Below are positions 10,278 through 51,065 of a stretch of DNA of 64,000 nt, one piece after another. Under the pieces are notes generated by a model. It searched no databases, had not been told where the DNA came from, and saw nothing but the letters and a program-made list of their open reading frames with translations. The position numbers and the translations under genes are program-made. Source of the stretch: Marsupella aquatica (Eukaryota > Plantae > Marchantiophyta); contig OZ316893.1 in assembly GCA_973895155.1 (NCBI GenBank), positions 12,850,359 through 12,914,358 of the forward strand, read 5' to 3'. Numbering within the stretch: position 1 is the stretch's first letter; each line of letters opens with the position of its first letter.

Positions 10278-10382
10278 GGGAATCTGTGAAACCCCACCGA
10301 AAGGGAAGAGTCAACCACAATAGTTGAACCCAAGACCTATCAGTCTCTACTCTACCCCAAGATCATACCTCTCTGGGCCAAC
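10278..10382 (-). mobile_element. Dispersed SINE-like repeat, copy 1
   Basis: Similar to 36012-36125 (CTGTGAAACCCCAC...GAAGAG...AGTTGAA...AAGA...CAGTCTCT). The minus strand has a degenerate B-box-like GGTTCAACT and an A-rich tail. Confidence 0.4.
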
Positions 10383-21020: not shown

Positions 21021-21028
21021 CCCCCTCT
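21021..21028 (-). other. Polypurine tract (AGAGGGGG)
   Basis: CCCCCTCT on the plus strand directly abuts the 3' LTR. Confidence 0.85.
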
Positions 21029-21134
21029 CGATCTGAAGCCGCAGAAAACAAACGGGAGAGAGAGAGATGATGCAGGTCAGCGAGAGTACCACTGTAGGTA
21101 TAGTGCGGGAGTGCAGTGTACACATATGATGAAC

Positions 21135-24100: not shown

Positions 24101-25469
24101 AGCCGGAGGACGACAGTTGATACAAACTGTTCCGCGGTGATCGAGATGCCTGGAGAAAGACGGATGATGGGTTGTCTTTGTCAAACACTAAGCAAGACTT
24201 AGAGTCAAACAAAATAAGATGACCAGCATCGGCAAGTTTGCCCACAGACATAAGATTTTTGTGAACACCAGGCACGTAAAGAACATTGTTGATAGCTTTA
24301 TTGTCAACATGAGCAGTGCCATTGCCAGCAATGGGCAAAGTGTTACCGCTAGCAGTGGTTACACCAGGACCAGAAGGGCCAGCCTGCTGGAAAGTCTCTA
24401 ATGTTGAGCGATGTCCAGTGATGTGATTGCTAGCACCGGAGTCCATGTACCAATCTTGAGAGGTGTTTCTGAATTCGGTAAGGTTGGCAGCAATCTCTTC
24501 CTCGTGCATCTCTGGAAATGGATCAAAATCCTCAGGGTCTGGAGTGAACTCCGTGAGGTGTGCCTGGGGTTTGATTCGACGAAGGTTCCCTGCACGAATC
24601 ATCAGCTGGGAGATTTGATCATCCAGCTTCTTCAGGTCGCACTCAACTTCCCAATGGCCAGATTTGCTGCAGTAGTTGCACGAGCCAGTCGTGCGACGTG
24701 GAGCAGGAGCAGGCGGGTGACAGCGGTTGTCAGCAATGGATCCACGGTAGTCCCCTGGGCGAGAGGGTCGGTGAGAGACACGGCCTCTGACAGCAGGTCG
24801 AGAAAAGCGAGCGAGAAGGGCTTCTTCAGCAACTTCCTCTCGTTTCCCTTTCCTCCAGAAAGCCTCAGCCTGCATACGTTCCACAAGGGAGGAGAACTTG
24901 GGTGTATGGGTTCTAGATAAATCAGCGCCAAAGCTGGATACAAAGGGACCCCAGCTATGTGGTAACCCGCCTAGAACAATGTGAATGAGACGGGAGTTGT
25001 CAACAGTGGCATTAATCGTGGAGAGTTGGGAAGTGATGCTTTCTACTTCCCTGAGGTAGTCTTCGATGTTACTGCCTTCAGTCATCTTGACTTTATGCAG
25101 CTTCTGTTCGAGGAGAAGTCTGCGTTGGAGAAGGTCACCTCGAAAGCGCTGCTTGAAGTGCTGCCAGCAGGCAACAGGATCGTTGCCATATGAAGCAACG
25201 ACATGGAGGAACTTGGTCTTGACGGTGGCCATCAGAATGGACTTGGCCTTGATGATCTTCTTCTTGCGTTCCTTGGGAGTGAGGACAATCTCATCCTCTA
25301 CTGTAGCAACGTTGGTTGTGTCAGTGTTGTCGCTGTCTTCGTCAGCGAACTTCAGTTCATCCCATACCTCGTCTCGCTCGAGCAGGGTCTGGACTTGTAA
25401 GCTCCACGTGATGTGGTTGCTTTCTCCATCTAGCTTGTCAGCTTCACTGAATATTCTAGCTAGGTCCAT
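21135..25469 (-). CDS. Copia gag-pol polyprotein (1444 aa)
   Basis: Gag, zinc knuckle CNYCSKSGHWEVEC, protease WYMDSGAS, GAG-pre-integrase WHRRLAH, integrase HSDLCGP/RSDRGGEY/NGVAERKNR, RT YVDD and RNase H. PR-IN-RT-RH order is diagnostic for copia. Confidence 0.97.
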   Translation of the reverse strand: MDLARIFSEADKLDGESNHITWSLQVQTLLERDEVWDELKFADEDSDNTDTTNVATVEDEIVLTPKERKKKIIKAKSILMATVKTKFLHVVASYGNDPVACWQHFKQRFRGDLLQRRLLLEQKLHKVKMTEGSNIEDYLREVESITSQLSTINATVDNSRLIHIVLGGLPHSWGPFVSSFGADLSRTHTPKFSSLVERMQAEAFWRKGKREEVAEEALLARFSRPAVRGRVSHRPSRPGDYRGSIADNRCHPPAPAPRRTTGSCNYCSKSGHWEVECDLKKLDDQISQLMIRAGNLRRIKPQAHLTEFTPDPEDFDPFPEMHEEEIAANLTEFRNTSQDWYMDSGASNHITGHRSTLETFQQAGPSGPGVTTASGNTLPIAGNGTAHVDNKAINNVLYVPGVHKNLMSVGKLADAGHLILFDSKSCLVFDKDNPSSVFLQASRSPRNSLYQLSSSGSYPPPCLTHEANTITNVETDIVDLWHRRLAHLNFQTAHHMTARHLVTGVPLLSFQKKQCTSCILGKTHRDNVPKHSIRRTSRVLDLVHSDLCGPIHSSSPVKYILTFIDDFTRFTWVYYLSHKHETFRCFKTFKTAAENQFGTKLSCLRSDRGGEYLSQEFIEFCSHHGIRRQLTAPSTPHQNGVAERKNRTLLEAARSIYVEGKYPRFLWPEAVKAATYVLNRCSTRALHLSTPFEALYGMKPDLSHLRVLGCSAFVRLPTKSDGKFGSRAIPSVFIGYDLNTKGYRCFDPLSRRILISSNVTFIEDSPGDFRAPPAQSDIFLDLLPATEAPSEPEGDEHHVLDHAAHDAPSNLDGTQLPNDNTIKDVADLGNHGGTHVHNVDPTIDEAPPLPCNSTLAPNVQINPLPKRRGSRARQLPAWARSGDYEMHIPEDVDLCIIETANPVSDTIAFRDAIQDPGWCSAMQEEYDSLIKNETWDLVELPPGRRAISSKWLYKSKPIHDADNPTRARLKARLVARGLEQQPGIDYNDTFAPVVRWSTLRAVIALAVASGWPISHMDVVTAFLNGTLKELLFMQQPPGFARKGLEHLVCRLNKSIYGLKQSPREWYQEIDKYLHEQGWTRSDADPNLYYLFQGSSIVLLLLYVDDLLITGNDLALIDTIKLNLQNRYEMKDLGEIRKYLGVEFTKTANGMLLHQHTYAEQILRDYNMTECRPAHTPLPEGFATQSNSNTAPVDRSEYCTLVGKLLFLTTTRPDLSYSVGMVARFMSQPHLQHLEAAKHILRYVKKTLDYGIHYKRSSQLLLTGYTDADYLGCLDTRRSTAGYVFTLASGPISWASKRQPTISDSTTEAEYKALSEATKEAVYLRRLLRELQHTSNVTVPVQCDNATIHKDLHEAAIPTSHDLHLHCDNQGSIRLALNPIFHARTKHIEAKHHFVRERILEGEVSLQYINTDDQHADIFTKQVCRQIFEKHRDFLGIRSRSSLLI

Positions 25470-25587
25470 GGCTAGATCACGTTGGGAACTCTCACCAACT
25501 GAAATAGACGGAGGGACAGGTCGCTCAAACTCAGAGAACTCTCATCTAAGTGTAGCGTTGGATCTTAGTCATGGGAGAGCTAACCTT

Positions 25588-25599
25588 GCTCTGATACCA
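25588..25599 (-). other. Primer binding site, tRNA-iMet type (TGGTATCAGAGC)
   Basis: GCTCTGATACCA on the plus strand directly abuts the 5' LTR. Confidence 0.92.
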
Positions 25600-25900
25600 T
25601 GTTGATAAAACTATCTAGCATGACTAAGATACCGGAACAGCCAACGGGAAGCACATAAGTACTCGGGGAAAGGGCAAGGAGTGCAGGGGGCGACAAAGAG
25701 GCGCCGCATAGTAGAAGAGCCCAAGAGAAGGGGCGAAAGCATCAGATGGATGCAACCTAGATCTAAAGGTAAGCAGCAAGGGACAGAAGACGACAACGAA
25801 CAGAAAGTGGGCCCGTATACTGAAGGGGAAAACAAGGTACTGAAGATCGGCCCGTATACTGAAGGGGAAAACAAGGTACTGAAGATCGTAGTTTCCAACA
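25600..25900 (-). repeat. 5' LTR of copia element (301 bp)
   Basis: Same sequence as 20720-21020. Confidence 0.97.
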
Positions 25901-30082: not shown

Positions 30083-32310
30083 ATGGTTCTTCTGGGCATG
30101 GCTACGAGGTATGTTCTCTCGGTGCTCTTCGCGATCCACCTGTTCGGTGGAGCAACCCTGAGGGTGGTTGCAGCCGATACCTTGAGCTTGTGTCAAGCTC
30201 TGGATCCGTCTCCTGAGCTGGAACCATTCGTCGATGAGCTCATTCAACCGCCTGAAATTGACATTTCGACCGGCTCACCGATCACTCTAGGGGCTTACAA
30301 GATAAAGCAGGTGCATAACCTGCAAATCCCAACTACTTTAGCCAATTTGACGACTATGATGAGGATTCAAAGGCTTTAGATGAAATATGAACTTCGCTTT
30401 TGGGGTTTTTTGGTAAGGCTGTCATTGGGTTCACTTGTATTTAGGTAGTTACTCTGGAGAGTATTAATTTCTGAGTGCTGGCCATTGAAGTGAAGAAGCA
30501 TGCAACGTTCTTGACTCAAGCTTAGTTGTTGAGGAAGCTGCTACTGTCAATTACGTACATACATACAACCTTGTTTTGAGCGCTCATGCTAAAACTTCAT
30601 TACATAGTCCATGACTTATGGACTTCTCAATTCCTCTCACGTTCATAGGGAAGAGAACTTCTTGTGGTTAAGTACTGTAAAATTCTCGGAATCGAGCGCA
30701 GGTATGGCATGCAGTGCCTGGTAAGTTCTTGTCTGGCTCGATCATATACTGATTTCAATCGGTTGAATGTACGAGTGTGTGCGCAGAAGCTGCATAGAGA
30801 TCTACCGGAGACAACACTATACGCTTACGGGTCGAGCCAGGAGGTAGCATCATCTCCTGGTCCGACTCTGATCGCCACCAGGGGAATTCCATCGCATGTC
30901 CGATGGGAGAATCACATGCACGATATGTACCATATACTGCCGGTCGATGACACCATAGCCTGGGCCAAACCCAAAAATGGAGGAATCCCCCTAGTCACCC
31001 ACCTCCACGGCGGAGAAGTGCTGAGTGAATCAGACGGGAACCCTAATAGTTGGCACACTGCAAAGGGAGACGTGGGCTCGGACTACACGACCAACAACTA
31101 CACTTACGCCAATTCTCAGTCCCCGGCGATGATCTGGTACCACGACCACACGGTGGGCATCACTCGCCTCAACATGGTTGCCGGCCTGCATGGCTTGTAT
31201 CTCATCCGCAGTTCCGAAGAGCCCCGAAATCTTCCCAGTGGAGAATTCGAGAAATTGCTGGTGCTCCAAGATAAGTATTTTTTCCCGGACGGAAGCATCA
31301 ACTTCCCCAACGTTGGTATCTCGCCAAACATCCACCCCGCCTGGTGTCCGGAGTATTATGGCGACACAATTCTAGTGAACGGAAAGGCCTGGCCTTTCCT
31401 CAATGTGTACCCCACCAAGTACCGATTCCGATTGCTCAATGCTGCCAACGCCAGATTCTTCGTTCTCACTTTGAGCGGGGAGCCCAGGCTGTCGTTCATT
31501 CAACTAGGAACTGATCAAGGCTATCTCCACACTTACAGGACGAGGAAAAATTTCACACTGGGTCCAGCCGAGAGAGTGGACTTCGTCATCGACTTCTCCA
31601 AAGTGAAGCCTGGACGCTCCGTGGTCCTTCGCAATTCTGGGGCGGCTCCTTATCCGGAAGGAAACCCTGCATTCAGCCCTCCCAGTACGCAGGTAGTCAT
31701 GAAATTCAATGTCGTCGCTTCCCCAGAAAATGTGTCTCTCCCAGAGTTTAACATCCCGAAGACTCTCTCACCGAAAGTGAGGATCAGCACCGAGGGAGCC
31801 ATTCGAAAGACGATGACTCTCACCGAGAACGACGACGACGCAGGCAACCCTGTTAACTCGTATCTGAACGGATTCAAGTGGATGGACCCCGTGACAGACA
31901 TTTCGGTGCTGAACTCCACCGAGATTTGGGAAATTATCAATCTCACCCAGGACGCGCATCCCATGCACATTCATTTGGTTGCTTTCATCGTGAAGAGCCA
32001 CCAAGCATTTGACACCGAGAGCTACGAGGCCGGGAACTGCACGTTGGACAGAGAGTTTGGAGACCCCGAGAGTTGCTACACTGAGGAACCTCAAGGTCCA
32101 TTAGCGGATCATAAAGGATGGAAAGACACTGCTGTTGTGTATCCTGGGAAGGTTACGCAGTTCGTGGTTCGGTGGACCACCCAGAGCGCGGAGCCCTTCA
32201 GCTTTGATGCCACCAGTGGCCCTGGATACGTCTGGCACTGCCACATTCTAGATCACGAGGACAATGACATGATGCGGCCGTTGAAGGTGGTCAATGCCAT
32301 AGAAAATTAA
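30083..32310 (+). CDS. LPR1: Second LPR1/LPR2-like multicopper oxidase; exons 30083-30310 and 30787-32310
   Basis: Signal peptide and LEPFVDEL in exon 1. Phase-0 intron 30311-30786 (CAG|GTGC ... GCAG|AAG CTG) at the same position as in the first paralog. Motifs THLHG, WYHDH, HPMHIH and WHCHILDHEDNDMM. Confidence 0.93.
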
Positions 32311-32571: not shown

Positions 32572-35027
32572 CTAGCTCAATACCCGTGCGTTGCACAAAA
32601 GAAGTCGTGTCGGTCAAGAGGTCATTGAGAAAAAAAGATGTCGTGTCGGCCAAGAGGTCGTTGAGAAAAAAAGATGTCGTGTCGGCCAAGAGGTCGTGGA
32701 GAGAGAAGATGTCGTGTCGGCCAAGAGGCCATGGAGAGAAAAGATGTCGTGTCGGCCAAGAGATCATTGAGAGAAAAGATGTCGTGTCGGCCAAGAGGCG
32801 GTGGAGAGAAAAGATGCCATGTCGGCCAAGAGGTCGTGGAGAGAAAAGATGTTGTGTTGGCCAAGAGGTCGTTGAGAGAAACGGTGTTGTGTCGGCCAAG
32901 AGGTCATGAAGAGAAGATGTTGTGTCGGCCAAGAGGTCGTTGAGAGTAAAGATGTCGTGTCGCCCAAGAGGTCGTTGAGAGTAAAGATGTCGTGTCGCCC
33001 AAGAGGTCGTTGAGAGTAAAGATGTCGTGTCGCCCAAGAGGTTGTTGAGAGAAAAGAAGTGGTGTTGGCCAAGATGTCGTTGAGAAAAAAAGATGTCGTG
33101 TCGACCAAGGGGTCGTTGAAAGAAAAGATGTCATGTCGGCCAAGAGGTCGTGGAGAGAAAAGATGTCGTGTCGCCCAAGAGGTCGTTGAGAGAAAAAGAA
33201 GTTGTGTTGACCAAGATGTCGTGTCGGCCAAGAGGTCGTTGAAAGAAAAGATGTCGTGTCGGCCAAGAGGTCATGAAGAGAAAAGATGCCATGACGCTCA
33301 AAAGGTCATTGAGAGAAAAGTTGTTGAGAAAAAAAGATGTCATGTCGGCCAAGAGGTCGTTGAGAAAAAAGATGTCGTGTCGGCCAAGAAGTCATTGAGA
33401 AAAAGATGTCGTTAAGAAAACAATTGTCATGTCGGCCAAGATGTTGTTGAGAAAAAAACTGTCATGTCGGCAAAGACGTTGTTGAGGGAAAAGATGTTGT
33501 GTCGGCCAAGACACTCTTGAGGGAAAATACATGTGCGTTGCACAAAAGATGTCGTGTCGCCCAACATGTTGTTATGTGGAAAAAATCATGAAGTAAAGAT
33601 GTCGTTACAAAAAAAGAAGTCATTTTGCCAAAGATGTCATTATATGAAATATGTTATCAAGAAAAAAGGTGTCGTTTCACCCAAGCTATCGTGATGTGAA
33701 AGATGTTATGACATAAAAAGTCAAGGAGAGAAGGAGCGAGTCTTTTTCTTTGTTGTTCTTTTTTACCCAAAATACCCCTTCATTTGAATGATGACCACTT
33801 TATAAATTGGTGCAACATTATATTGTCGGTTTCAGATTTAGGTTTTAGCAAAGATGACCATTCTGTCGGTATCCTTTCAATCCTCGTGCGTTGCATAAAA
33901 GATGTTGTTTGGTTAAAGATGTTGTTGAAAAATAGATTGTGGTGCAAAATATATCGTTGAAATAAAAAATGTTAAATATATTATTGCACAAAAACTTTTG
34001 TTGAGTGAAGATATCATTGTGCAAAATAGTGGCTATGGCAGCCACAAAAGTTCCCTTTTCTTTTTCTCTTTTTTCTCCTTGCACAAAAAAATTCTTGAAT
34101 AAAAGATGTCATTGCACAAAAGACTGGCTATGACAACCACAAAAGTATAACAAAATGAGAGGTGTTTTTTTCCTTTTTTTCCTTTTTTTCTCTCTAATAT
34201 TCCTTTCAAACCTTAACCTCCCCCTTTTCCCCATTTTCCTATTTTTGGTCTTCTCTTTTTCACATTCCCCATCACTCCACTCGTTCGCCGCCCCCCCCCC
34301 CCCCCATGTGAGATAGAGGGGCTACTCTACATTGCAAGTGTGCCCCTCGCCTTGCCATCAACCCCCATGCCATGCGCTTCACTATGTCTTTGGGCTTATT
34401 TATTTATTTTTTTGGCATTAAAAATGACACTGCAATGACTGTAAAAATCACCACAAATATTGGGAGAATAGTTTTTTTGTTGATCTAGTGACTAAAATGT
34501 TATTAGCAATTAAACTACTCTCACCAATATTACACAAAATTATGATGCACACAATATTGAATATGTACAATGAATCACAAAATTATGATGCACACAATAT
34601 TGAATATGTACAATGAATATATACAATACAAACTTGCATATGAGTATGACTATACAATACTTACTTGTATACCTTGTTGAGGCCCTTCCTAGCCTTAATT
34701 GGTTTTGAAAGGTCCCAGCAGCCCTTGGCAAAAACCTTAGCTGCTGTGCCTAGTTTGAATTTGGCGGCATATGTTTTGGCCAATGACGTGCATTGATGTA
34801 TCCTCCTTGATCCTCGTGCATTGATCCGTGTGCATGTTAAAGTCTTTCACTTTTTTTTGTGTATGGTGTGATTGTCTTGGACACTGGTACAACTTTTTGT
34901 GACTCACACTAAATTCAATTCAAAGCTTTATTGCTTACCTTTGACCAATTTTTTTAATTTTTGTGCCCTGCAAATTTGAATGACGACCACTCTAAAAAGT
35001 GGCGCAACTGTGTATTATAGTTCTTGA
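32572..35027 (-). mobile_element. Non-autonomous Helitron, probably compound (two units)
   Basis: Minus-strand 3' end reads GTGCAACGCACGGGTATTGAG-CTAG|T (hairpin plus CTAG, 32572-32600). 5' end reads A|TCAAGAACTATAATAC at 35027, giving an A|T insertion site. A second 5'-like end lies at ~33836 and a second hairpin at ~33885. Confidence 0.6.
32597..33700. repeat. 35-bp minisatellite (~25-30 degenerate copies)
   Basis: Unit TGAGAG(T/A)AAAGATGTCGTGTCG(G/C)CCAAGAGGTCGT, e.g. 32941-32975 and 32976-33010; it decays to the right. Confidence 0.92.
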
Positions 35028-35984: not shown

Positions 35985-36125
35985 CTTTTGTTTTAAAATA
36001 AAAATTTTAAGTGAATTCTGTGAAACCCCACAGAAAGAGAAGAGCCAGTCACAACAGTTGAATCTAAGATCTACAGTCTCTAATCAACAAGTGAGCTACC
36101 ACAAAGTCATGCCTCCATGGGCAAA
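35985..36125 (-). mobile_element. Dispersed SINE-like repeat, copy 2
   Basis: Similar to 10278-10382, with an A-rich tail on the minus strand (TTTTTTGTTTTGTTCTTTTG on plus). Confidence 0.4.
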
Positions 36126-36480
36126 TGACCAGTTCTTATGTTTACTTCAAACATATCAAGTGCAAACTAAGGGAACTTCATGCTAATTTCCGGTTTCAAT
36201 ATTCAAATACAAAAATCAAAAACATTTATTGATTTAGCTGTTTTGGGACTACTTCAATTAAATAATCCGTCCAAAGTTGAAACTTTTTGTTCAGACTGTT
36301 TTCATTCACTTCTTGGGAATGTGATGCTAAAGTTTTTTGTTCCCTTTGGACTCACCATCAAAATTCCTCAACGCTCTTTGGTTTTGGCTTGCTGCCCACA
36401 GCATTGCGTGGAGGTACAAAACTCTAGATGGACTAGACATCAAACTTGATAGACCTTACACTTCTTTAAAACCCACCTAC

Positions 36481-36505
36481 ATCACCCTATTCATTAAAAC
36501 TGGAA
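36481..36505 (+). repeat. Left terminal inverted repeat
   Basis: Inverted match to 48970-48994; preceded by CTAC. Confidence 0.85.
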
Positions 36506-37281
36506 TTTCTCTAGTCCAGAAGTTGACCTTCAAATTTCTTATTTTACCCCCAAAAGTTCTATAACTTGTTCCCCAAAAGCATATATTTTAGTGGCCAAAT
36601 ATACACTTTTTGAGGTCTAAAATTACAATTCTAATGCCCAAATTATTAATTAAATATTTCAGTTATCAATTATTAATACTTATTAATTAAAAGACAATAA
36701 AGTGTTCTTATTATATACAATATAAACAATGAAAAAATAGAATAAGACAATATAATAAATTCAAATGACCCGTGATAACCAAGTTACACAAACAGGGAAG
36801 GTAAACCAGTGATGTATTATAAAAGTAAAACACCTATTTTTACAGGGTCGAGACCACGTTTGCCCCAATGCAGGCTCTAGATGGTTTTGACCGGTTGTTG
36901 AATGTATATCAATTACTATGTAAAAATCTATGTCGATATTATCTCGACCCAAATGTAGGGTCCACATAATTTTGACCCGTTGTTGAATCTATATCTCTAG
37001 CTATTCCCTTTGTATAGGGTCGAGACCCAAATAACCTTTTTCTCTACAAGTAAAAGAGGATCAACAGCATCTAGACTCAATTGGATCTACAACTCACATT
37101 GTAACTGTCAGTGTAGGGTCGAGATAATCTAGACCCAAATCTCATGCTCCTCCACCCCGCAGAATTCATTTGAGCAAGTAAATCTAGACCCTGATTGGTC
37201 ATATTTCATATCACAATTGCAGAAATCGAGAGGCTTCCTATTCCAGAACTTCGTGGTGAGGTCCCTACACCTCAAGACTTC

Positions 37282-38403
37282 CTAAACAAATCCCCGATGA
37301 TTGTCTCTGTAGGGTCCTGTGTACTGATATCCAATTAACGTCTTTGCAAGGTCGTTGATCGCCTCCTCCGTCAATTCCTTCATTGGTGGTAATTGTTGCA
37401 CTTCATTCTTGACATCCCAAGGAATTTTGTCCGCTATGACATCCAAGACTGTATGGATAACCGAATGAACCCATACCATACTACCCCACCGCTCCGTCAA
37501 CAACGCATAAATGGCAGCCTGTTGATCTCTGTCCGCTAAAACATTTATCATAGACCACTTTGGATGATTGATAAAAAGGTAGTGCTGAAGATTGAAGGCA
37601 TGATACAATTTCCTGAGCATAGGCCATAGTATTTCTGGAAAGAATGTATCATCCGTGGAGTGATGCGAAAATGAGGAAGGAAACAACCCACAATTCTCTG
37701 GATTCGCAAATGCCTTCATTGGAGTGTCATCAAGAAGGAGTGTATTAGTTTCGTCGTATAATCCACCATAACGTTTCCAAACCACCCTCAAATCCTTCAA
37801 ATGAATATTTGCCTTCCCATCAGTAATGTCAGGCCTTTGGATTCCAGTATCGAATGTATCTTCTTGTGTGAGAATAAACTTGAATTGCTCTCGCTCTTCT
37901 TGACTGAAGATCAAATGAATCATTTCATCTGTCCTGGGTTTCCTTACACAAGTCCAAATGGCAACATCAAATAACGAAAAAGCTGCGATTAAGAACTCGT
38001 GAAGATGGGGTCGCTCAACATACATAAAGTTAAACCCTCCACGTCTCCCCCAGTGGACACCCTTGACACTTGTTGCACTACGGCGCGGTCTGGAACTTGT
38101 CGTTTTGACAGAATCCCAACACATTTTGTTGAGGTCAAGAATCAATAGCTTCCGTCTGATCGGACCGTGAAGTGGAGGCAAGGGTCCTACAAACAAGGAA
38201 CACCAATGTTAGAATTGTGGAAGATAAAACAAAGGAATGCTCGAGACGAACTCGAGCATCACAAGTGAATGAACAACAGTCAACGTCATACCTATTGTTG
38301 GTTGAAGGTTAGTAGTTGAAGAAATCTCAGGACATCTTTGGAGATTATTGTCGACGCACTCCACAACTGGTAAGGGCCCGCCTATTTCTGTGAAGGTAGA
38401 CAT
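37282..38403 (-). CDS. FCP1/SCP (NIF)-like HAD phosphatase domain carried by the transposon; exons ~38403-38292 and 38186-37282; possibly pseudogenised
   Basis: Motifs KLLILDLN, VERPHLHEFL, FDVAIWT, LKDLRVVW and TNTLLLDDTPMKAFANPEN. Phase-1 intron 38291-38187 (ATAG|GTATGA ... TTTGTAG|GACCC) keeps the frame. The frame continues past the TAG at 37282 into a Cys-rich tail. Confidence 0.75.
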
Positions 38404-41400
38404 AATAATTTAGACGGCTGAATTTCAGGGCTGTTCAAACTAACTTGGGTTTCAACCTCACGTGCTGAAAGACCCAAATTCATCTAGAAGGTTATCTCCT
38501 AGTTGGTTTTGGATGTCCAAATTTATCCCTCCGAGAAGGGTCTTAACAAGAGCTGGCTCAGACCAAACTGGCACTAATTTGAACTTATCCTTCCTATACT
38601 TTCTAGATCGAATAATCTTCTTAGACTGCTCATACTGACTTGTTGACCTTTTGACGGTCCATCAGTCCAAACATAATGAGTAGCACTTGCTTTGAGTGAT
38701 TTGTAACCAGTTCTACCAATTTCAGTCCCCGATTTCCTAACAAAAGGGAGAATTACGGGGCTTCCAGTAGAAGAATCTGTGAAAACAAGCTTATTCTCTG
38801 AAGCGCAAAACATTTGGTCCAAGGGAGAGGACGATGCACCTGCCTCGTCCTGAGGGGGAGTATGGCAGCCACTAGCTTTCTTAGTAGAGAAAATCTCATC
38901 TAGTTGAGGAGGGCTTGGAATTGGTCTCGGGGGTCTCACTATATGGGGACCTCCCCATCGCCTGCGACGTTTTTAGGCCTCGGACCCCCTAAAATGTAAG
39001 AAAAACATTAATTTTTTAACCCCTATAAAGTTGGAATATTCTTGGAATATTCTAAAAATTGGATTAAAAAGACCCTAATGTTCTTATAAGTCTCAAAATT
39101 GAATTTAAAAGACCCTATTGTTCTTCTACAAAAATTCTTAAGTCTTCCCTTAGAACCAATAAAATGACCCTATCCTTCCTCGCACGTGATATGCCATTTT
39201 TGTGGAAGTGAAACCCCCGAGGAATTGGTTGGCTAATTGCATCCTGCAAGGTGGATTCCTAGCCAACATCCAAGGTTGAAGACTGTTCTTCATGTTGTGC
39301 ATCCCCAAGGTCACCCGATGAAGGAACACCTGGAACGTCGAGATCATCTCGAGCATCATTTCCAAATTCAGGCAATATTTCACCCTCCTCTTCCATGTAG
39401 CTTGTGATTTTCGAGCCCTCCATTTTGCGATGCTCTAAATTCTCCGCAAATACTTCCTCATAAACATTGGCTTCCATTGGAGCTATGTCTAAGGCCGCCT
39501 CTTCTATTACAACAAGAGGACCGACAGTAATTTCCTCAGATGGTAACGACTCCTTGGGTGGCACATATAAAACCTGCTTGTTGTCATGAAGGAGCTGAGC
39601 AAAGGCTTCTGTGAATTCCATCTCTTGAGCTGTGTCCAAATACACAAAACAATCACGACCAAGAATGACACAAGCTTTCAATGTCTGTCCTCCAGAGAAG
39701 AAATCCAACACTGTATGACATGGGCACGAGAAATAATCAACAAGACGCTTTGTCATTCACAAAGGCTTTGCTCTCGGATTTACAAAGCCACCACGCCGAC
39801 CGACCATCTCATAAGATGGGGCCATCTTCTCCAAAACTTCGACATCAACAATGGATTCATCGAGCTTGTCTTTCCCCTTTGATTGGTCTTCGTTGTTCCC
39901 AGTAGGGGCCTTCAAAGGCAAGACTGTGAAGTCTCTGTCCCACTTCTCACTGTAGTTCCAGAATGCATAAAAGTCATCAAAGAAAATTTGGGACCAGTCT
40001 GGTTCCTCTTCACAACAAATTCCCCCAAAGATGATTGAGTCTCGGGCTCCAATGAGAAAATCTCCCTCCTCCTTGGGCAGCTAATCACGGTAGTAGCTCC
40101 CGTACTCCAGCTTTGTGTGGACTTTTTTCTCACGATGAATCTTTTCAAAGGCACTCTGAATCTGGCCTATTATTGGGCCTTGACGGACAAAAAATATTAC
40201 TAAGAGCTCTGTTGAGTTCGCCATCTGCAAACAATACTCTAGCAAGACAAAAAATTTGGCATCTATCCACTGCCGTTGTCAAAGACGACCAAAATCGAGA
40301 ATGGAGAGTGGGCACTTCCTTTGCACCGAGTCAACAATCTAAAGCTTCATTGTCTTCATCAAATTATCACTAAAAAATGTGCGATAAGGAGTATCCTCCA
40401 TTGAAGGCAATCCGCCAAATACCTTGCAATATATTTGTTCAAGCCTAACAATGAGACTTTGCGGAAATGGGTCTTTTGGCCTATTTCTTTTTAGGAGGTT
40501 GGAAATCCAAACCTTTCCAGCAAGTTGTCTAAGTTTTGGCAACTCACCACGATCCATAAATGCAGGCAAAAATTGAGTTAGCTCAAACCAAGTGAGTGAA
40601 TTGGCAAACCGATCCGGATACTTCAAAACAAAGTACTCCACAATTTTTGCCCTCAGCTTGGTCATGACTTTGAAAGTACGAGCCATATCACTCATTGATT
40701 GAACATCAGATTTGTTGGCTAGGTCTTTCTTCAATAAAACCTTCTGTTATTGAACGGCAGTAAAAACTTTCAGAATGTCGTCACTACTCAGGTCTCCTTC
40801 AAAGCATCTAAACCATGCCGGCGTAATCATTTTTGTTGTCCGGGATTTCCCATTTATTTTTGAACCTAACTCCCCTAGACCATCCAGAAGAAGTCCCTTG
40901 ACCCAATCGATGCACATTTGTCTCCAAGTTCGGAAGAGGTTCTCATCCAAAAACAACAACCAAAAAATATTCCTCAGATCGGATTTTCCAGTCGTTATTT
41001 TGGCAAGGGCCATAAAATCCTGATCCAAACAGTACAAAGAAAATCTGAGGCTCGAGACGATCTCGAGGTAGAATTAAGAAACTATGGTAAAATTATGGGA
41101 GAATACATGAAGATAAATCAAATACAGAAACTTGACCTCGAGGCTCGAGACAATCTCGAGCTAGAAGTGGATTTGAGTTTGAATTTACCTGGAACTTTTG
41201 ATGATCCGTTAGTCTATTGGATCCAATCACGGGTCTCTCCGGACGGCCACACTTGTCAAACTGTCGACGGGCATGGACCATAGTATCAAGAAAAAAGGAC
41301 TCATACTCCATGGTCTTATTAACAGCATTTGCCCTTTGTGAGTGTTGAGCAAGTATTGTTCTTGGAGTTCTGTCCGAAAGAATTCGTGACTTTCGATATT

Positions 41401-44400
41401 GCAGACTCTTCGCGACCTCCTTCAACTTTGCATCGCTCTTAGCCTTTGCCGAGTGTTGTCCACTGATTGCAAGGAACTGCACCTTCTTACTCTTAACACC
41501 CCACTCGAACTCCTTTCGATCCTCAGCAGTATTCTCATAATGGAGCAACTGCAAACTCTCTCTTGAATACGGAATTAAATCCGCCATAGCTGGTACCATT
41601 CCAGGGTTTCTAACCATGGATTTTGCGACCTCCATGGCATGGTCTTTATTGAACATCCTATATACCAAAACTGCAGACGGAAAATCTATACTAGTGACAG
41701 GAATGTCAAAAGTTTCATTCATGCCAAATGTGTAATACTCCTCAATCTCCTTAAGAACTTCGGCTCCTTCCTTAACGCTCATTTCTCCCGGAGCATCTCC
41801 TGGAGTGCCATCATCATCGGTATGTGCATTCACACCCGAGGAAGATGCCGGAATGAGATCTACCTTGGGTGGCGTGGATTTTTTTTGAGGTGGAGCCTTC
41901 TTTGCTTTGCTTTCGGGTTTCTCAACCCTCTTCCTCTTTTGAGACACCTTTGCTTTCTTTTTGTCCAAACCTGACGTCTTGTCTCCCGCAGCTACAGATT
42001 TCAATTTACCTGTTTGTCTCCGATGAGACAACACCCACTTTTTACAAGCATCCTCGTCAAATTCTCCGGCTCCAAACACAAAATCAGAGGATATCAATTC
42101 AAACTCCCCCAATTTGGATTCCGACATTAGTCTCAAAACCTTTCACGTGAAAGGAGTCGTGAATGCATCATCACGATCAAACCCATACTTTCGACAATAA
42201 AGGAATCCAAAAATTATGTCCGCTCCAGATATTGGAGTATCTTCTAGCAAATTACTTGTAGTATAACCCTCGGGAAAGAACCTCATTGATATCACGCTCA
42301 GTTGTTTCCTGGCTGCACGTTCAATGTTAAGATCGCAAGAGTAGTTTTTGGTGTGAAGTCTAATTAGAGCCCACTTCCCTGTCTCGTGGTTCTCCACCGT
42401 CAAAACCATGTCCTTACCGTTACTCGTCACAATAGAAAAAATAGGCCCTAGAAGGCTGCACACTAGAGGATCGATTGATGGAGACCTCGTCTTCACACAA
42501 ATAATAGTTCCTTCCATGTCTTCAGTTTCAGCAAGCTCAATGGCCCAACAGAATCCAAATAAACCCTGTCCAGGGCAAGAAACCTTGATTGCATGTTCAT
42601 CTTTGACTACCAAATTAGGCGATCCCAATTTCGCACGTGGTACAGCCAAAATGTAGCAATTGTCAGAAACATGTACTACAAAACCAAGAAACAAATAGGT
42701 GGCTCGAGATGATCTCGATCTTCCTTTTAAGTTTAATAGTCTGACATGTTCCAATGCCATTTCATCCATGGAATTTGAAAAGAGATTTCAAACCCAAGAA
42801 ATCTAAAAAGATAACACAATAGGCTCGAGATGATCTCGAGCCACCATCTGTTTAAAAGATCTCGATCCTCATATATATCAGTTGAGGTTTTATTCCATTG
42901 CATATCATGAACCAGTCAAATTTAACGAACAACATTTTCAAGAATGATCCAATGTCACCTATTCGACCACATTCAAAACCCTCTAACTCAGTGGTTTGTC
43001 ATCTTCACAAACGAGTTGGAGGACTAAGAAAGTGGTCCAAAAGGCAAGCTTGGATCACAATGAAAAGGATATTAGTAATTGACGACATGGAGTCCTTCCA
43101 ACTGGAAGAAATTGGCCAAGGGATACGAATGACCATAAAGGAAGATGGTGAGGGATATATTTGGCTTGAGACAATCTCGAGCCTAACATGTCAAACGAGT
43201 GATCCGAATATCATATTCAACAATGAACATCATATTCAATCAATGATTAAAATCCACTTTCTCCATTGATTTCTGATACCCACAAACCCGTTCGGATGTC
43301 AATAATCAGAACGAGTTGGAGGGTACAGAAGTCCCTGGAGGAAGGAAATTTTAGATTTTTTGGATATGATGTTTCACTTTTGAAGGATAAGGGTTTCCAA
43401 CTTGAAGAAATCTCACTAGGTCACATGCAGGAATTTCATATTGGCTCGAGACGATCTCGAGCCTCATGCCACTTACATCAAATGCAAAATCAATTGATAG
43501 ATCACAACTTTTGAAGCAAAGTATTGCAGAAAACATCAATAGGCTCGAGATGATCTCGAGCCTCAACTGCACCCAAGGAATCCAGAAACAAGTGGACCAA
43601 TTGAAGCTCGAGACGATCTCGAGTTAAACCTGAACAGAACAAAGATGATGAATTACGTTTAATGGTGCGATGGATCTAATGCGCTGAGTCTAGATGGGTC
43701 TGAAGCTCTTCGCCAACGGTTGCAAGGTTGTACTCAGCGAAGTCCTCCTTGGAGAAATCTACAACAGTCGACATGGCTGGTGAAGAGAGGAATGTACTAC
43801 GGTCTGAGAACTTAAAAACAAATCTCAAGCCTAAACAAAATATCTCAACCCTATCGAAGCTCGAGCTTAAACACAAAATCTTGACCCTATAAAATCTCAA
43901 GGAAAAAACCTAATCTCGACCCTCTGCAATCTCGAGGCTAATACAAGGATCTTGAGGCAAGAGCGCAAAACAATCTAGAGGCAAGGAGGCAAGGGACGCG
44001 AGGAGGCGAAGAGGCGAGGAGGCGAATGTGAAAATGGGGAATTCAAAACCCCTGAAGCCACTATAAGCCCCTCGGGGGTCGGCCTTGGCCGTGCCAAGCG
44101 TGCCAGGGCTCGTGCAGGCTCAGGCAGGCTGCCACGCAACCTGCTGGGTGCGTACAGTCATTATTACGGTCACACATGTTGTCATTATTGTTATCCGTAC
44201 TTCAGCCCTGCCGTGAGTTTAGCCGTGACACAAGTTCAACGAAGCCATCTTATTGGCCTTTTTGTCTGTCAGGGTTTTATATATTGCTTCTCTTTGGTCT
44301 CCAGTGGGTCATTCTTCTCATTTCGTTTCATTGCTCGCCCGTTTCTCCCTCTGCCTCTCTCTCCCTCTCCCTCTCCCTCTCTTTGGCTCTAGATTTCTGC

Positions 44401-45427
44401 TCTGATCTCTTTCTGTTGTTCTTTTCAAGGGTTGTGGACTCTACGTTTGTGTTTAGGATATTTCGAGAAATTCTCATTTTAAGCCCTGAAGGAGGTCTAA
44501 AATAATTGAGCTCCTATCTTTTAGAAAACCAAACCTTTTCAGCTTATACTAGTGTCGGTCAAAATCCATTTGGAAGCCTTTTCCCTCTATTTGATGGCCT
44601 TTTAGAAGCTATTTCTCAGTTTCTGGAAGTAAACTGGGAGCCTACTTTCTTAATTGCACCAAATCATTTCTCTAGATCATCTAGAGCCATTTATATGTTC
44701 TTATTCTGGGTGGCTTATTATTCATAATAGTTTCTTTGTCAAATGCAATATCCTTTTTGGCTCGAGATCATCTCGAGTCATAAGTTTTATCCTCAAACTT
44801 ATTCACTTTTGCCTTCTTTCTAATGGTGCATTCGGTTTTCCTTCTTATAATTGAGTTTGTAGAGAGTCAGAGGTATAGAATCTGAATTCGCTATTCAGTG
44901 AGATTTCATATTTTACCTCGAGATCGTCTCGAGCTAAATACTTCTGAATTTTTACCCTTTCCTCACAATGGAGCCGATACCGTTCAGGAAGCATTGGACA
45001 CTTTTGTATTCTGGAATTTAAAGGATGTTACTCGGAGGAGTTCTTCCCAGGATATTCTAAACGACCTGTCCACACGGGATGTTTTTTCAAATTATAATTT
45101 CAAGGATTATAGTTTGCGTTCTAATTGGATGACCAAGGAGGTGGAATTGTATGCTGAGGATAATCGGACCAAAGTGGGGGTTGGCATCATCACAGTTCCT
45201 TTCAAGTCAGGTGCAATTGATGATGATGTTCTTGGACCAGATCACGTTGGGGTTGCTGTCACACCCGTGATTGACCCTCTATTTTTCCCAAATATCTCCC
45301 CAGGAGTGCTTGGTCTTGTTAGGTGGGCCGTCCGTTCACTTCTGCTGATATCAAGGGGTATTTTTCTTCTGGATCTCATTGAAGAGGTTTCTCCAAAACC
45401 AATTATTGATGATCGAGATCATCTAGA
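38240..45427. repeat. Dispersed 17-bp palindrome CTCGAGAnnnTCTCGAG (~13 copies)
   Basis: Copies start at 38240, 39337, 41051, 41144, 42703, 42824, 43165, 43445, 43544, 43607, 44761, 44917 and 45412; several carry 1-2 mismatches. Confidence 0.9.
39259..42769 (-). pseudogene. Transposon-borne ParB-like plus N4/N6 DNA-methyltransferase-like protein (~1100 aa), broken by in-frame stops
   Basis: ORFs 42143-42769 and 41093-42136 share one frame; 40747-41037, 40339-40734 and 39259-39756 share another. The two blocks join via phase-0 intron 41188-41020 (CAG|GTAAAT ... GGATCAG|GAT). ParB-like FLAISGQHS; beta-MTase-like VNPRAKP*MTKRLVDYFSCPCHTVLDFFSGGQTLKACVILGR. Further 5' exons probably extend to an ATG near 43773. 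Confidence 0.65.
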
Positions 45428-48119
45428 GGTAGATATGAAAGGTGACATTGAGTTTTCAAAGCGCCCGTATAATTTCATCAAGAGAACGAAGGTCAACCTA
45501 GATGAAAAAAGAAAGAAGCACTTGGAGTCTCGGGCGATACTGAAAATCACAAAGGAGGAAATTGACTCCATCCAAAAAGAAGGTTGTTGTAAGTTGAAGT
45601 GTTGCCTCAGCATGCCGAGAGAAGACCTACAGGCAATAAGGAGGGAATACCATGGGATGTCAAGCGACAACAAAACCAGTCACATTCTCACTCTTTTTGG
45701 CTGTAGGGAGAAGGAAGTGGATACAAAAGGATATTTCGTTGTAAGAAGTAGACTTGTTTGCAAGGGTGCATTTATTAAAATGCATGGATTCAGCACTGCC
45801 AAGTATTATGATTACAAAAATCAATATGAAGCAGGTTGCACGGTTGGATTCCACGGAAACAAGGGTTCACACAAGACACGGGGAAGCACCTTGCATGCTC
45901 GTGCTTTGTTGGAGTCCATTATAACCCAAAACGGAGAACCCATGCCGCATCTTCCCTATGGAGGGTCTCACGGGATTGACACGGTTGAGTACAGACTTCC
46001 ATCTTGTTTCACGAAGAAAGAGATTTTTGAGGAGGTATACTCAAAAATGGAATTAGATGGCTACATGAAGGTGAGTGAAAACACTATGTATAAACTCTGG
46101 AGTGAGTCCTTCATGAATTTTGACTTTCACAAGGGAAGTGCATTTGCAAAGTGTACACTTTGCACTGAGTTCAAAGATCAGTTGATGCGGGAGAAGAGAA
46201 AGAAAGAGCGTTTGGAGATTGAGGAAAGAAGAGCTCGCCATCTTCGTGAGCAAATGTCTAGGAGATATATTTACTATGCTCATAGGGTTCTTGCGAAGAA
46301 GGATCCTGAGAACTATCTTTGCATTATACATGACAAGATGGACCAGGCCAAGACATGGATCCCTAGGTTGGTCCCCACTCCTAAATCATTGTCTGGTAGT
46401 GGTCAATCGCTCCCCATTGCGCTCACTGGGATGTTGACCCATGGAAGGGATCCCGGAGTGTATGCTCACTTCAGTTTCACTGGGCTTTGGCCGGGAGATG
46501 CAGACTTCACAGTGACATCATTGGCCAAGTGCCTTAGAGATCTGGAGGATTACAAGGGGGACAAATCTGGAGACCTCCTTGAAGGATTATATTGGGCTGC
46601 AACGAGGCCAATTTTTCAATCTCTTTTGGACTTTGAAGCATTTCTCGCAGGTTACTTAGAACCCAAAAAAGTCTCAATTGCTAGATTTCAAGGAGCTGAA
46701 GATGACCAAGACTACTTTGGTGTTGATCCCAAGGCTACGTCTACCTCTTTCAAACCATTGCCAAGGCACCTGACCTTGTAAATGGATAATTCAGGGAAAG
46801 ATAACAAAAACCAGTACGTGATGGCATTTTGCAGTGAGCTTGTTAGTAGAGGGGTTTTTGAAACAGTGCAGATGTCGTTTCTCATGGTTGGTCACACCCA
46901 TGAGGATGTTGATGCATTGTTTTCAAAAGTATCCAACCAAGTGAAGTACAAGGAGGTTTCTACCCTCTTGGGGTTGATGGCTGAGGTTTGGGAGTGTGAA
47001 AGCATTCATCCTGTCCCACGGTTGATCCAAGAGGTTGCAGCTTACAAAGAGTTTTTGAAAACTTTGAAGGTAAAAGACATAGAGGGTCACTCAATACCAG
47101 TGGCATTTCTTTTCTCTATGAGAGATAATGTTCCAATATATCAATACAAAGCACATGTGAAACAACCTTGGTACCCTCCAACCGGAAGGTCCATTTGGAG
47201 AACTGATTCCAGCACCAATGCTCTCATTTTACCAGAAGGTCAACCATTTGCAAAACCCATCTCCGGGGATGTACGAGGCAAGGTTGAAGAAATCATCCCA
47301 TTCCTTAATCGTTACATTGAGTTTTTGAAGAAGAGTTGTAAGGATGAGACCTCTACAGCATATCGTGAGCGGTTTCCTTTGGTGAAATATTGGGAGATGG
47401 TGGTGCAAGTATTATCTGGGGAGCTTACAATTGAAGGGGAGGCAGAAATACAGTTAGCATTGACATATGAATTCTGGCCAAAAACCAACCACGAAACTGG
47501 TTACAAGGTTAATAGTACAGGAACCTCTGAACCATTGGGGGAGCCTAGTAGTAGTACACAGAATCCACAAATGGTGGAGCTTCAGAATGAGTACCTGGAA
47601 GAGATGGAGGATCAAGCTGCAACATTTGTTGGTGCTCGACACGAGCGAGAACTTGCACGTTGGATTCCTCTGCAGGACATTCAAGAGGGTCACTTTGTAT
47701 TTCTCCGTCCAGAGGATGAATGGGAAAAGAAGAATGGGAAAGAACGTTTCTGGTTGGTGAGAGCTTTGGGTGTTGTGGACCCAAACCATGAAGTTCCTTC
47801 AGGACACTTGCAATGCAATGAGAATTCTCCTACTAGTACACAGTATGCTCCTATGTTCCAAGTGCAATGGTGGAGGCCTAAACATGGTAAGCATGATGCA
47901 CCGGATCATGTGCGATATTCACGTTGCTTTCAAACCACTAAGACTTGGGAGGTGGATCCTGGGTTTGACAGTGCCACTGAATGTTGGCAATTTGCTAATT
48001 CTGCTATGTATGGATTCAAGTCACGCTCTAGAGAAGAAAATATAATTGATAGAGGTTTGACCATTCCCAAGAATGTTTTGAAAACACTCAAAACCTACAT
48101 GGAAGGGATTGTTGAGTAA
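44898..48119 (+). pseudogene. Sola-like/DUF7869 DDE transposase with one premature stop (TAA 46779-46781)
   Basis: ORFs 44898-46781 and 46782-48119 are adjacent and in frame. Motifs CCKLKC, KCTLC...H, IHDKMDQAK, HLTL*MDNSGKDNKN and FLMVGHTHEDVDALFS. The stop replaces the usual Q of LQ(L/M)DN. True start uncertain. Confidence 0.85.
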
Positions 48120-48596
48120 GTCAAATGTTTTTTAGTAGTCACTCTATCAGAGTGAGGGAGTCTATGTCATTTAGTTTGGAATTAGACATGTCAGAGTGAG
48201 GGAGTCTATGTCAATTAGTTTGGAATCAGACATGTCTTTAGTACTTACTGTTGGTTAGTACTAAGTAGTATATATATCTATTTAAGTAACTAATTATTAT
48301 AATATTTTGGGATACTAGTTTGATTAGGTGGAGGTAATTGGACTTGGATACCTTTATAATTTCTTTAATTAATTATTATATCAATACAGACTATATATTA
48401 CATGAAGTCTTAATATCCATGATAGGATGTGAGTGCCTCTTAGTACTGTCTAGTAGTAAACCTTAGTTTCAACTCGAGTTGCTTAGAATGTAACAAATTA
48501 CTTGTCTGAATGGATAGTAAGCCAGGTATCATTCAAATTTAATATATTAAATGCTCTCAATTAGTAACTAAGTAGAAGGTTAATTTAGCTAGCTAA

Positions 48597-48737
48597 GGGT
48601 AGAGATCATATTGAAGCTTTACTAGTTATATGGGTAGAGATCATATTATTTGAAGCTTTACTAGTTATATGGGTAGAGATCATATTGAAGCTTTACTAGT
48701 TATATGGGTAGAGATCATATTGTTCAAGCTTTACTAG
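48597..48737. repeat. ~35-bp tandem repeat, 4 copies, in the transposon 3' subterminal region
   Basis: GGGTAGAGATCATATTGAAGCTTTACTAGTTATAT repeated. Confidence 0.85.
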
Positions 48738-48969
48738 ACACATATTCTATTAGTCAAATTGAATCAATGTAAGTAAGTTCTACTTCTTATCCAACATATT
48801 TTACATTATTATCACCCAAATGTTTTTCTTTAGAATCCAAATTAATATTTCATTTTCTCCTATGTACAATCTTGATCCCCCAAATGTACAACTCCCACTG
48901 CCCAAATGTACAATTCTTGTGCCCAAATATATATTTTTTGGTGCCTAAATGTCCAAAGATCAAAGAATT

Positions 48970-48994
48970 TTCCAGTTTTAATGAATAGACTGAT
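48970..48994 (-). repeat. Right terminal inverted repeat
   Basis: Inverted match to 36481-36505; followed by CTAC. Confidence 0.85.
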
Positions 48995-51065
48995 CTACTT
49001 AAACTCACGAGTGCTCCTTCCCAACTCTCAATCCATCATTGAAATTTGTTGTCCCTTGACATGAAAAGGAACTATCCATGAAGGGAACTCCAATTGATGT
49101 TCCTGGACATGCTGCCGCCAAGGCGGCCCGGCTCAAGGAGGAGGCTTATGTGATTCGTTACCCAGGGGATGTTTTTACCCTTTTGCCCCTGAGGCCTTTG
49201 GTGCTCTCCACCCTCGTTTTGACCACTTCCTTTGAGCTTGTGTTATGTTTTATATTGAGCGGAGGTCTTTTCCCCTGTTTCTGTCTTCATTGCCTTCTTT
49301 CAACAAAAGGTGTCAGTGGCACTTCAGAGGGCCTAGGCTTTCACTATTCTTTGTAGGGCCGAGGCAGTCGATTTTAGGGCCTCTAGACAAATTCCCTCCG
49401 TGACCCTCCTACCTGCCCTCCTATGCGGTTTACTCCATAGCTCTACCAGACTTTTCAATTAAAGTCAGGTAGGGTTTTTAGTTTGTTTTTGCTTCTTAGC
49501 TTTTTTGTTGTGTGGGAAACTCCTTGGCTTGGTGTGTCTCTTTGGTCTTCTTGTGGTCTTTCCCTTCCCCCTTTTCTTGGGTTCTTTTGCCTTTTGTGAT
49601 CTGTCTCCAGGTTCGGCTATCTTTTGGGCTATCTTTTTGACACTTTGATATATATAATAACTGAGTGATTTGAGACCACTTATCGTTGTGGGGGACTTAG
49701 TCTCGCATTCTCAGTGGAGTCGATGGAGGAACGTTAAGAGCAGCATTTTAGTAGTTGAGTCAAAGCTCGGAATAGGATTCATAACTCTACTATAAAACAA
49801 AAAGTTCAGTGGATCTCATCTGAATTTAAAAGGTAATGATGAAGTATGACACGTGAAAAAGACTGTGATTTAAGCAAAACTACTATTTGGAAGTTGTATG
49901 CGAGCTGCGACTATCATGCTCGAGGCTTGCTTAATTACTCGTCCGGGTTGCAAGAGTTTTGGGTGCGCGATACTTGTCTTGATCTGTTCTATTCTTTCTT
50001 GTGTGGATTCGATACTCGGAGGTGGACTGGGAGAAACTCAGTCAAGCAACTAGGCAGCTCTCCTGTTCTTCCATTCTAATTGTTGCGTGGCTGGAGATTG
50101 AGTTCAGCTCTCGGTTGAGCTGGTTTTGCGAGCTGTGGGTCTTAGTTAGGAACATGGATGAGGCGCAGGTGTGGGCGTTGGTCATCATGAAGAATTAGTC
50201 ACAGTGTGACATTGGTGGTTGGAGTGGTGACTTTTCCATGATGGTAATCTGCGTGAGATCGATAGCATGGTTGGCGCAAGCAAATGAGGAAGGGAGGGAG
50301 GACTACAGAGTACGCAGGCATGACTGAATGCTGGTGCTGCCCAGTTGGTTCCAATTCAAAGATGATGGCATGCTGAGATCCTGCCAGGAGACGCGATGGT
50401 GGTGACTCGTCCTTGCGGTGAGGTGCGGTGAGGTGTTGGCAGACTAGCCAGACACTATGGTTTGGACGAAGTATTGATTGACTTCATTAAGTATTGATGA
50501 CTTCATTTTAATTGGTTGTAATCTAGGCCTTTATCGTCAAAGTACGTATCGTGTCGACACGACAAATGTGCTAAAGCAAGTGCTGGAGTTTCCTGCAATC
50601 TAAAAAGTGAGTCGAAGGAAAGCTGGTTTTCGTCAGCTGCTCCTGCTCCCTCAGAACGATCCTAGCAACATGGATCAAGCTTCTTGCGTTCTTAAACGAA
50701 GGGTACGTAGTATGTTTGGTGGAGTCACTGTTGCATGTGGCCAACGGCTATATCTGACTTGAACGGACAAGCAGCCACCACAGGGAACACTCAATAATTA
50801 CTGGCGCCACGTTTCTGTGGAATTGTTCAATGATCTGATGCTGGTGTCCTCATCCAAACGACCAAACGAGTGTGTTTTATTCCGAACTCGAGTTTGGACT
50901 CATGTACGTGATGAACGAGCAAGAGGAGGGGAGTGGCATGGAAAACTTTCTTGCTGACGTCTTACTTCGTCTACATTACGACCTTTTCGCACTTTTCGAG
51001 TGACGGAAGAAACAAGTGGAGAGGCAGCCAGAAGCCGAGAACTTGATCTACACTCGCCGCTGTTG

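Follow-up and report, generated by a model that had tools for sequence, protein, structure and literature searches.

The 64-kb window analysed here, the whole 64,000-nucleotide stretch of contig OZ316893.1, contains an element of 12,514 bp at positions 36481-48994. It is bounded by 25 bp terminal inverted repeats (TIRs) and a CTAC target-site duplication (TSD), and carries a transposase gene on the plus strand and, divergently, two accessory genes (A and B) on the minus strand. It is best explained as a defective copy of a 12.5-kb cut-and-paste DNA transposon of Sola type, a repeated unit that carries two accessory genes. All three genes are disrupted in the window copy, with a total of 10 stops, one frameshift and a nested miniature inverted-repeat transposable element (MITE); the initial annotation mentions neither the damage nor the MITE. 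The features are:

36477..36480, strand not applicable: left TSD, CTAC (flank comparison)
36481..36505, plus strand: left TIR, 25 bp, 23 of 25 bases identical to the right TIR
36932..45428: 16 palindromes CTCGAGA-N3-TCTCGAG, 17 bp, up to 3 mismatches (pattern scan)
37129..38403, minus strand: gene B, NIF/HAD (UBLCP1-like) phosphatase-like, ~389 aa (Pfam NIF; putative start codon)
38458..43774, minus strand: gene A, ParB-like, helical region and N4/N6-methyltransferase (MTase)-like, ~1284 aa (exons placed via homologs)
38926..39221, within gene A: nested MITE, 296 bp, with a 14-bp TIR (13 of 14) and an 8-bp TSD
39580..40400, approximate, minus strand: beta-class N4/N6 DNA methyltransferase-like domain of gene A (profile matches)
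41189..41827, minus strand: ParB/Srx-fold-like domain of gene A, motif ISGQHS (weak structure searches)
43775..44885: putative shared divergent promoter or 5' region of gene A and the transposase, from its position between the genes
44886..48119, plus strand: Sola-type DDD transposase (DUF7869; CxxC ahead of the core; start codon position uncertain)
48594..48940, plus strand: short subterminal direct repeats, 35-39 bp units and 21-22 bp CCCAAATGT units
48970..48994, minus strand: right TIR, 25 bp (TIR comparison and contig depth step)
48995..48998, strand not applicable: right TSD, CTAC (flank comparison)

The initial annotation proposed 25 bp TIRs and a CTAC TSD around 12.5 kb, and both are confirmed: the TIRs agree at 23 of 25 bases, and among flank lengths of 2-10 the CTAC 4-mer is the sole matching duplication. 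The element termini are ATCA. In the 64-kb window, a search for inverted pairs (25 bp or longer, up to two mismatches) gives six overlapping rows that reduce to two distinct pairs, the TIR pair and one internal palindrome pair. Other copies are seen through contigs listed from four public runs (X1-X4), which back the boundaries from outside the window. On the left flank, single-copy identical contigs end at 36508 (X1), 36498 (X2) and 36507 (X4), so that in three of the four runs listed they reach 18-28 nt into the left TIR, and a contig in X3 has other, unrelated DNA joined to base 36481. At the right end, depth drops between bins 48988-49006 and 49007-49025 from 761 to 25.7 in X1 and from 28,149 to 137 in X3. 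No contig among those listed joins the right flank to the left flank as an empty site. A 788-nt contig in X3/X4 that is ~88% like the right flank begins at 48993, and a further 399 nt are unlike the element end. We note that the flanks joined across the insertion (36000-36480 and 48999-49100) form one reading frame, presumably of a long interspersed nuclear element (LINE)-like protein although no tool gives a match, and that a weak paralog in the window near 10240-10815 aligns over the joint in a comparison that had no control. It seems that the element inserted into a decayed repeat. Another repeat starts abruptly at 49097, where many contigs of all four runs begin.

Copy estimates use the depths of single contigs, and summed depth is not taken as copy number. 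The X1 depths are 376.7 at 38353-38846 (the end of gene A and start of gene B), 321.5 on a further element contig, 304.5 on gene A exon 2, 439.4 and 426.1 on the transposase, and 434 at the right end, whereas flank and junction contigs have depths of 17.2, 21.4 and 25.7. Because the transposase, cargo and right end share a depth of 304-439 against 17-26 in the flanks, the cargo is part of the repeated unit, and the depths imply roughly 12-26 near-identical copies of the whole unit including its cargo; the X1 element contigs listed diverge 0-2% from the window. The contig depths thus bear out the proposal of a multi-gene, multi-copy Sola-type element with which the cargo moves. In X4, a contig with ~89% identity to the end of gene B has a depth of 4726, compared to 32-34 in the flanks, and a related high-copy subfamily therefore also carries the phosphatase-like gene. 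As a separate observation, X3 and X4 contain subfamilies ~88-90% identical over 37114-48994, gene B and the right TIR included, at depths far above that of the window's own subfamily.

The transposase gene has a single stop at 46779-46781, and the read-through frame matches Pfam DUF7869 (E 1.5e-41), which we take to be the Sola transposase family. Relatives are numerous, with 3904 representatives at E<=0.001, the best of which is 49% identical over the full length. Three acidic motifs, HDKMD (46329), MDNSG (46782) and GHTHEDVD (46890), have patterns that are present in 61, 67 and 58 of 67 core sequences and are the putative catalytic DDD residues; with the motifs read as DDD-type, the plus-strand transposase predicted earlier stands. 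In a quick tree of the 67 of 155 proteins that cover the core, the transposase lies beside a Riccia protein and separate from the named animal proteins (Shimodaira-Hasegawa-like approximate likelihood ratio test, SH-aLRT, 97), and among 10 named relatives looked up the closest are from the liverwort Riccia sorocarpa. Homologs P0015-P0017 (window 44937-45500) have a repeated N-terminal module of ~60 residues before the core, LP.PH.GA.T....G....W, with no Pfam match.

Sola elements are defined, in the available text of PMC10741241, by a DDD transposase, a 4-bp TSD and TIRs of variable length (11-1124 bp), and are present in moss. The element here has a 4-bp TSD (at one insertion), 25-bp TIRs that lie within this range and DDD-type motifs, and its multiple dispersed copies, as expected of Sola, are seen in the depth steps at both ends and the second junction at 36481. 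The placement uses the TSD, TIRs and DDD motifs and is at the level of the superfamily, above Sola1, Sola2 and Sola3. Among active plant clusters, Ginger and Sola jointly account for 9 of 3203 in the part of PMC12973397 available.

Gene A is spliced, with exon 1 at 43774-43657 (a predicted exon), exon 2 at 42675-41189 and exon 3 at 41019-38458, separated by two GT-AG introns; gene B has a single intron, and the divergent spliced cargo described in the initial annotation is thus present on the minus strand. The cargo proteins are 36-68% identical to their homologs and share the intron position. All five homologs of gene A exon 2 (P0001-P0005) end at the intron-2 donor, and the exon 3 homolog P0012 (36% identity) runs beyond the MITE and the frameshift to the same end as gene A. 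An end at 39259 was rejected, because that stop is private to the window copy and the homolog continues past the MITE, as was fusion of the phosphatase to gene A, because the stop at 38458 coincides with the end of P0012. The window copy of gene A is heavily damaged: besides the MITE insertion and a frameshift near 38631, it has eight in-frame stops and a gap of eight residues within its ParB-like domain. The MITE is missing from other copies, in which 38916 is joined to 39221 at depths of 321 (X1) and 597 (X4); its bin depth is very high, as for a very high-copy MITE, and it is nested in gene A of the window copy only.

The domain in exon 2 of gene A is predicted to be ParB-like in fold on the basis of three weak but concordant searches. 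With a model of pLDDT (predicted local distance difference test) 57, Foldseek returns ParB/Noc in eight of the nine top rows (E 0.37-1.2); the top three in VIA are PadC (Z 4.6, root-mean-square deviation 3.6, 87 aligned), KorB (Z 3.7) and ParB-N (Z 2.9); and in Atlas the ParB_N cluster scores 0.90 and DUF3723, the top family, 0.92, at a low recognition value. There is no Pfam ParB match, searches of PDB sequences with the alignment or P0012 give nothing significant (best M.RsrI, E 0.11), and no related loci were found with the alignment in metagenome contigs or prokaryote genomes. DUF3723 members, which make up 31% of the top Atlas family, are fungal, and DUF3723 is mentioned in several Starship papers; ParB-like genes may be recurring in unrelated giant elements.

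Further towards the C-terminus, gene A has a methyltransferase-like domain that matches PF01555 weakly (E 1.1e-4) and, among phage methyltransferase families, phrog_3008 (E 1.9e-6). Comparison by hhalign with eight prokaryotic and phage MTases gives a probability of 97 and an E-value of 1.7e-11 but is confident only over the S-adenosylmethionine (SAM)-binding half, and the Atlas MTase score for P0012, whose predicted structure is of low confidence (pLDDT 31), is 0.90-0.95. The SAM-binding half (HPTxKP ... VLDxFxGSG) is present on the C-terminal side with a motif one residue short. A motif scan for [DSN]PP[YFW] with FxGxG finds none in window gene A (1131 codons read), P0012 or P0014, while DPPY is present in all eight prokaryotic and phage comparators. 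SPPY/DPPY is the catalytic motif, mutation of which kills activity in a rotifer enzyme (PMC8885841, available text). One alternative to be weighed here is that gene A encodes an active amino-methyltransferase, which would bind the palindromes and mark them as self with N4-methylcytosine or N6-methyladenine, for example at TCGA or CTCGAG. Several profile searches match an N4/N6-MTase domain, the region is conserved between the window and P0012, the palindrome half-sites contain TCGA, a named target of bacterial N4C-MTases in the available text of PMC8885841, and the same proposal is made for algal proteins in that of PMC12477816. However, besides the absence of [DSN]PP[YFW], the sequence placed by eye as the likely motif IV is DFGR/DFSR, and motif I is DFFSGG, which falls a residue short of the DFFxGSG/DPFxGSG of all eight prokaryotic and phage proteins, and we consider active methylation unlikely. 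The absent catalytic motifs suggest that binding, not methylation, may be the conserved function: because the motifs are non-canonical and this is shared with the homologs, self-methylation is doubtful and self-binding more likely. Both domain likenesses of the proposed ParB-MTase-like gene are thus retained, and its DNA-modification part is weakened, with no [DSN]PP[YFW] in gene A or an intact homolog.

Gene B starts 55 bp behind gene A and consists of exon 1 (38403-38292), an intron (38291-38187) and exon 2 (38186-37129), with a premature stop at codon 339 and a tail that contains cysteines. The phosphatase cargo recognized earlier is borne out as a NIF/HAD phosphatase-like domain, since the product matches Pfam NIF (PF03031) at E 1.8e-16 (60.7 bits against a cut-off of 21.8), and the nearest solved structure is UBLCP1 (3shq, E 1.2e-9). 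Three homologs with 49-60% identity extend past the premature stop; no related loci were found in viral contigs with the NIF alignment. The catalytic motif of NIF/FCP1-like HAD phosphatases is DxDxT/V. Gene B departs from this, motif I being DLNK (DLNKM/I/V) in each of the three aligned sequences, out of four, that cover it, and all three cargo domains thus have non-canonical active-site motifs common to their homologs.

The element also contains a set of 17-bp palindromes, which start at 36932, 37118, 38240, 39337, 41051, 41144, 42703, 42824, 43165, 43445, 43544, 43607, 44670, 44761, 44917 and 45412. Allowing 0, 1, 2 or 3 mismatches, there are 8, 12, 14 and 16 sites inside the element, and the remaining 51.5 kb of the window contain 0, 0, 0 and 2; in 100 Markov shuffles the three-mismatch count averages 0.36 and reaches 2 at most. 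Nine of the 16 lie in introns, four in other non-coding DNA and three in open frames, and a cluster of half-sites is present at 43821-43939 in the divergent promoter region. Spacing is irregular (63-1714 bp) and identity between flanks has a median of 31% and a maximum of 42.5% (120 pairs); because the flanks are unrelated, the palindromes did not arise by tandem duplication. The initial annotation's palindrome array therefore holds as an enrichment inside the element (14 versus 0 at up to two mismatches) and fails as an array, a tandem arrangement being rejected in favor of dispersed, unequally spaced sites with unrelated flanks. The CG positions of the motif are intact at 27 of 32, in an element that is CpG-poor (observed/expected 0.56). 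Taken together, this is what would be expected of a protein-binding site maintained by selection. A pattern scan of metagenomes returned at least 121 stretches, and none of the 120 loci examined matches the element or its proteins; these matches were rejected as chance because the multi-site loci are GC-rich and have no likeness to the element.

Two further explanations bear on the placement of these sites. The cargo genes could be roleless passengers, with the palindromes serving as transposase or host-factor sites or arising as by-products of local repeat turnover. Gene A has decayed beyond the transposase in the window copy, the catalytic motifs of all three cargo domains are non-canonical, and the idea that the palindromes are kept as a peptide in homologs was rejected, since the peptides they force are missing in ~170 homologous proteins (2 matches among 172, both the window's own). 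But open frames are retained in divergent homologs, the brown-algal Sola1 has an equally oriented ParB-MTase gene (PMC12477816, available text), and the nine intronic sites are distant from the element termini, at which a transposase would be expected to bind, and we regard the passenger explanation as rather improbable. Alternatively, gene A might act in transposition, bridging or compacting the 12.5-kb element via the palindromes so that its ends pair, rather than in anti-silencing. The palindromes cover 8.5 kb of the interior, ParB-family proteins spread along and bridge DNA, and ParB-like genes recur in giant elements; the top Atlas family for the exon 2 domain is DUF3723. This has the least appeal to us and seems quite unlikely, as the right 3.5 kb has no site at all, the CTP (cytidine triphosphate)-binding arginine is seemingly absent, and giant elements without such genes move too (PMC12477816, available text).

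A plausible scenario, and one that we favor by a modest degree, is that the 17-bp palindromes of the element are bound by its own gene A protein, probably with no methylation, and that this keeps the element transcribed or mobile. The transposase would cut at the TIRs, generating the 4-bp duplication, and the gene A product would recognize the palindromes as a dimer, with two 7-bp half-sites and a 3-bp spacer, as ParB does on parS. Binding in the introns and around the divergent promoter could then shield the element from host silencing in the manner of the VANDAL accessory proteins; this anti-silencing role of gene A is hypothetical. The phosphatase-like protein would probably assist, perhaps by binding phosphorylated nuclear proteins, and this is the weakest step. 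What the sequence and contigs establish is the anatomy, namely the TIRs, the TSD, the three genes, the palindrome enrichment and the matching depth of cargo and transposase. Self-binding is further favored by the retained CG positions and unrelated flanks of the palindromes, the agreement of three weak searches on a ParB-like fold, the conservation of the cargo proteins and the precedents of PAG3 and Sola1-1_Ec32 described below.

Several observations weigh against self-binding by gene A. There are eight stops in gene A and one in the transposase, for 75 and 77 at-risk codons, respectively (Fisher p = 0.035), and the cargo may therefore be the first part to decay and not be required in cis. 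Taken singly, the ParB matches all fall short of significance (E > 0.3; Z <=4.6; pLDDT 57), and the ParB-like motif reads SGQHS in all seven aligned sequences, without the arginine of the nucleotide-binding ParB motif GxxR/DGQHR. The verdict on the catalytic motif of the MTase-like domain covers two lineages, and hhalign does not place motif IV. The palindrome pattern was taken from the same sites that it counts, the right 3.5 kb of the element has no palindrome, and the sites could instead be bound by the transposase or a host factor. No listed contig covers both transposase and cargo, so that depth is what links the two in other copies, and X1 could be the source of the window itself.

A more specific and more speculative version, which we think doubtful, is that a land-plant transposon has rebuilt a bacterial parS/ParB system out of pseudo-enzymes, in which a dead MTase-ParB would coat the element from intronic palindromes and a phospho-binding pseudo-phosphatase would help against silencing. 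Were this true, it would give plants a second self-targeted anti-silencing system, independent of the first, and, in the site with its protein, a portable chromatin tool. Self-binding by the gene A protein, if true, would add self-targeted counter-silencing to plant transposon biology and provide a possible targeting tool. The idea is open to direct test, given a sharply defined 17-bp site, multiple copies that are nearly identical and a host that is likely a land plant.

Among the other features of the window, we note a copia long terminal repeat (LTR) retrotransposon at 20713-25892 that is young: its LTRs agree at 99% over 300 nt, and its minus-strand polyprotein frame runs for 1468 aa without interruption. 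Multicopper oxidase paralogs at 951-2489 and 30649-32310 lie ~30 kb apart and are 71% identical over 204 nt, and right behind the second are ~25 copies of a 35-bp unit (32577-33700). The window also contains a malectin-like gene, and it has spliced genes; together with the two multicopper oxidases and the copia element, these suggest that the DNA is from a land plant.

Comparison with known systems places the element among several partial parallels. VANDAL is a eudicot Mutator-like element with a different accessory protein, VANC. Its accessory protein acts on the sequence of the transposon itself, and this plant system provides the functional model for the present element, with the difference that anti-silencing is demonstrated there and proposed here. 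Bacterial ParB/Noc-parS resembles the predicted exon 2 fold and has palindromic sites of comparable length; here there is no ParA and no arginine motif, and the gene is a spliced eukaryotic one. The beta-class N4/N6 MTases are alike in the SAM-binding half but have the DPPY/SPPY motif that is absent here. ParB-linked adenine methylases occur in algae and phages (PMC4738411, available text).

Closer are two groups of giant elements published in 2025, which we compare from the parts of the sources available. The red-algal Plavaka (EnSpm) elements of Bostrychia (bioRxiv 10.1101/2025.02.11.637652), with PAG1-3, are giant DNA transposons with a PF01555 methylase domain and a ParB-like protein, PAG3, proposed to bind its own element and located beside inverted-repeat arrays. 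They differ in belonging to another transposase superfamily and a red alga, in having ParB fused to a 2-oxoglutarate (2OG) oxygenase and the methylase to SET, and in having tandem arrays beside PAG3 where the sites here are dispersed and intronic. Ectocarpus Sola1-1_Ec32 (PMC12477816) is likewise giant, at 21.5 kb, with a 4-bp TSD and an accessory ParB and N4/N6-MTase gene on the strand opposite the transposase (1104 aa compared to ~1284 aa here), whose product is proposed to bind and modify its own element; the best match given for its transposase is moss Sola1-1_PPa. It differs in its 282-bp TIRs and AACCG termini, where the element here has 12.5 kb, 25-bp TIRs and ATCA termini, and, by its description, in an MTase predicted to be active, the catalytic motif being missing here; neither a phosphatase gene nor palindromes are mentioned in the available text. 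The suggestion of a possibly undescribed transposon family is thus not upheld, as Sola1-1_Ec32 has the same opposite-strand ParB-MTase gene, and nor is the view that Sola elements encode only a transposase. Because these Sola1 and Plavaka elements were already published, the design itself is known. The literature searched, with most subscription journals and Repbase Reports outside its scope, yielded no land-plant example and no phosphatase cargo. What is new here is the likely land-plant host, the extra phosphatase-like gene, the intronic palindromes and the non-canonical motifs in all three cargo domains.

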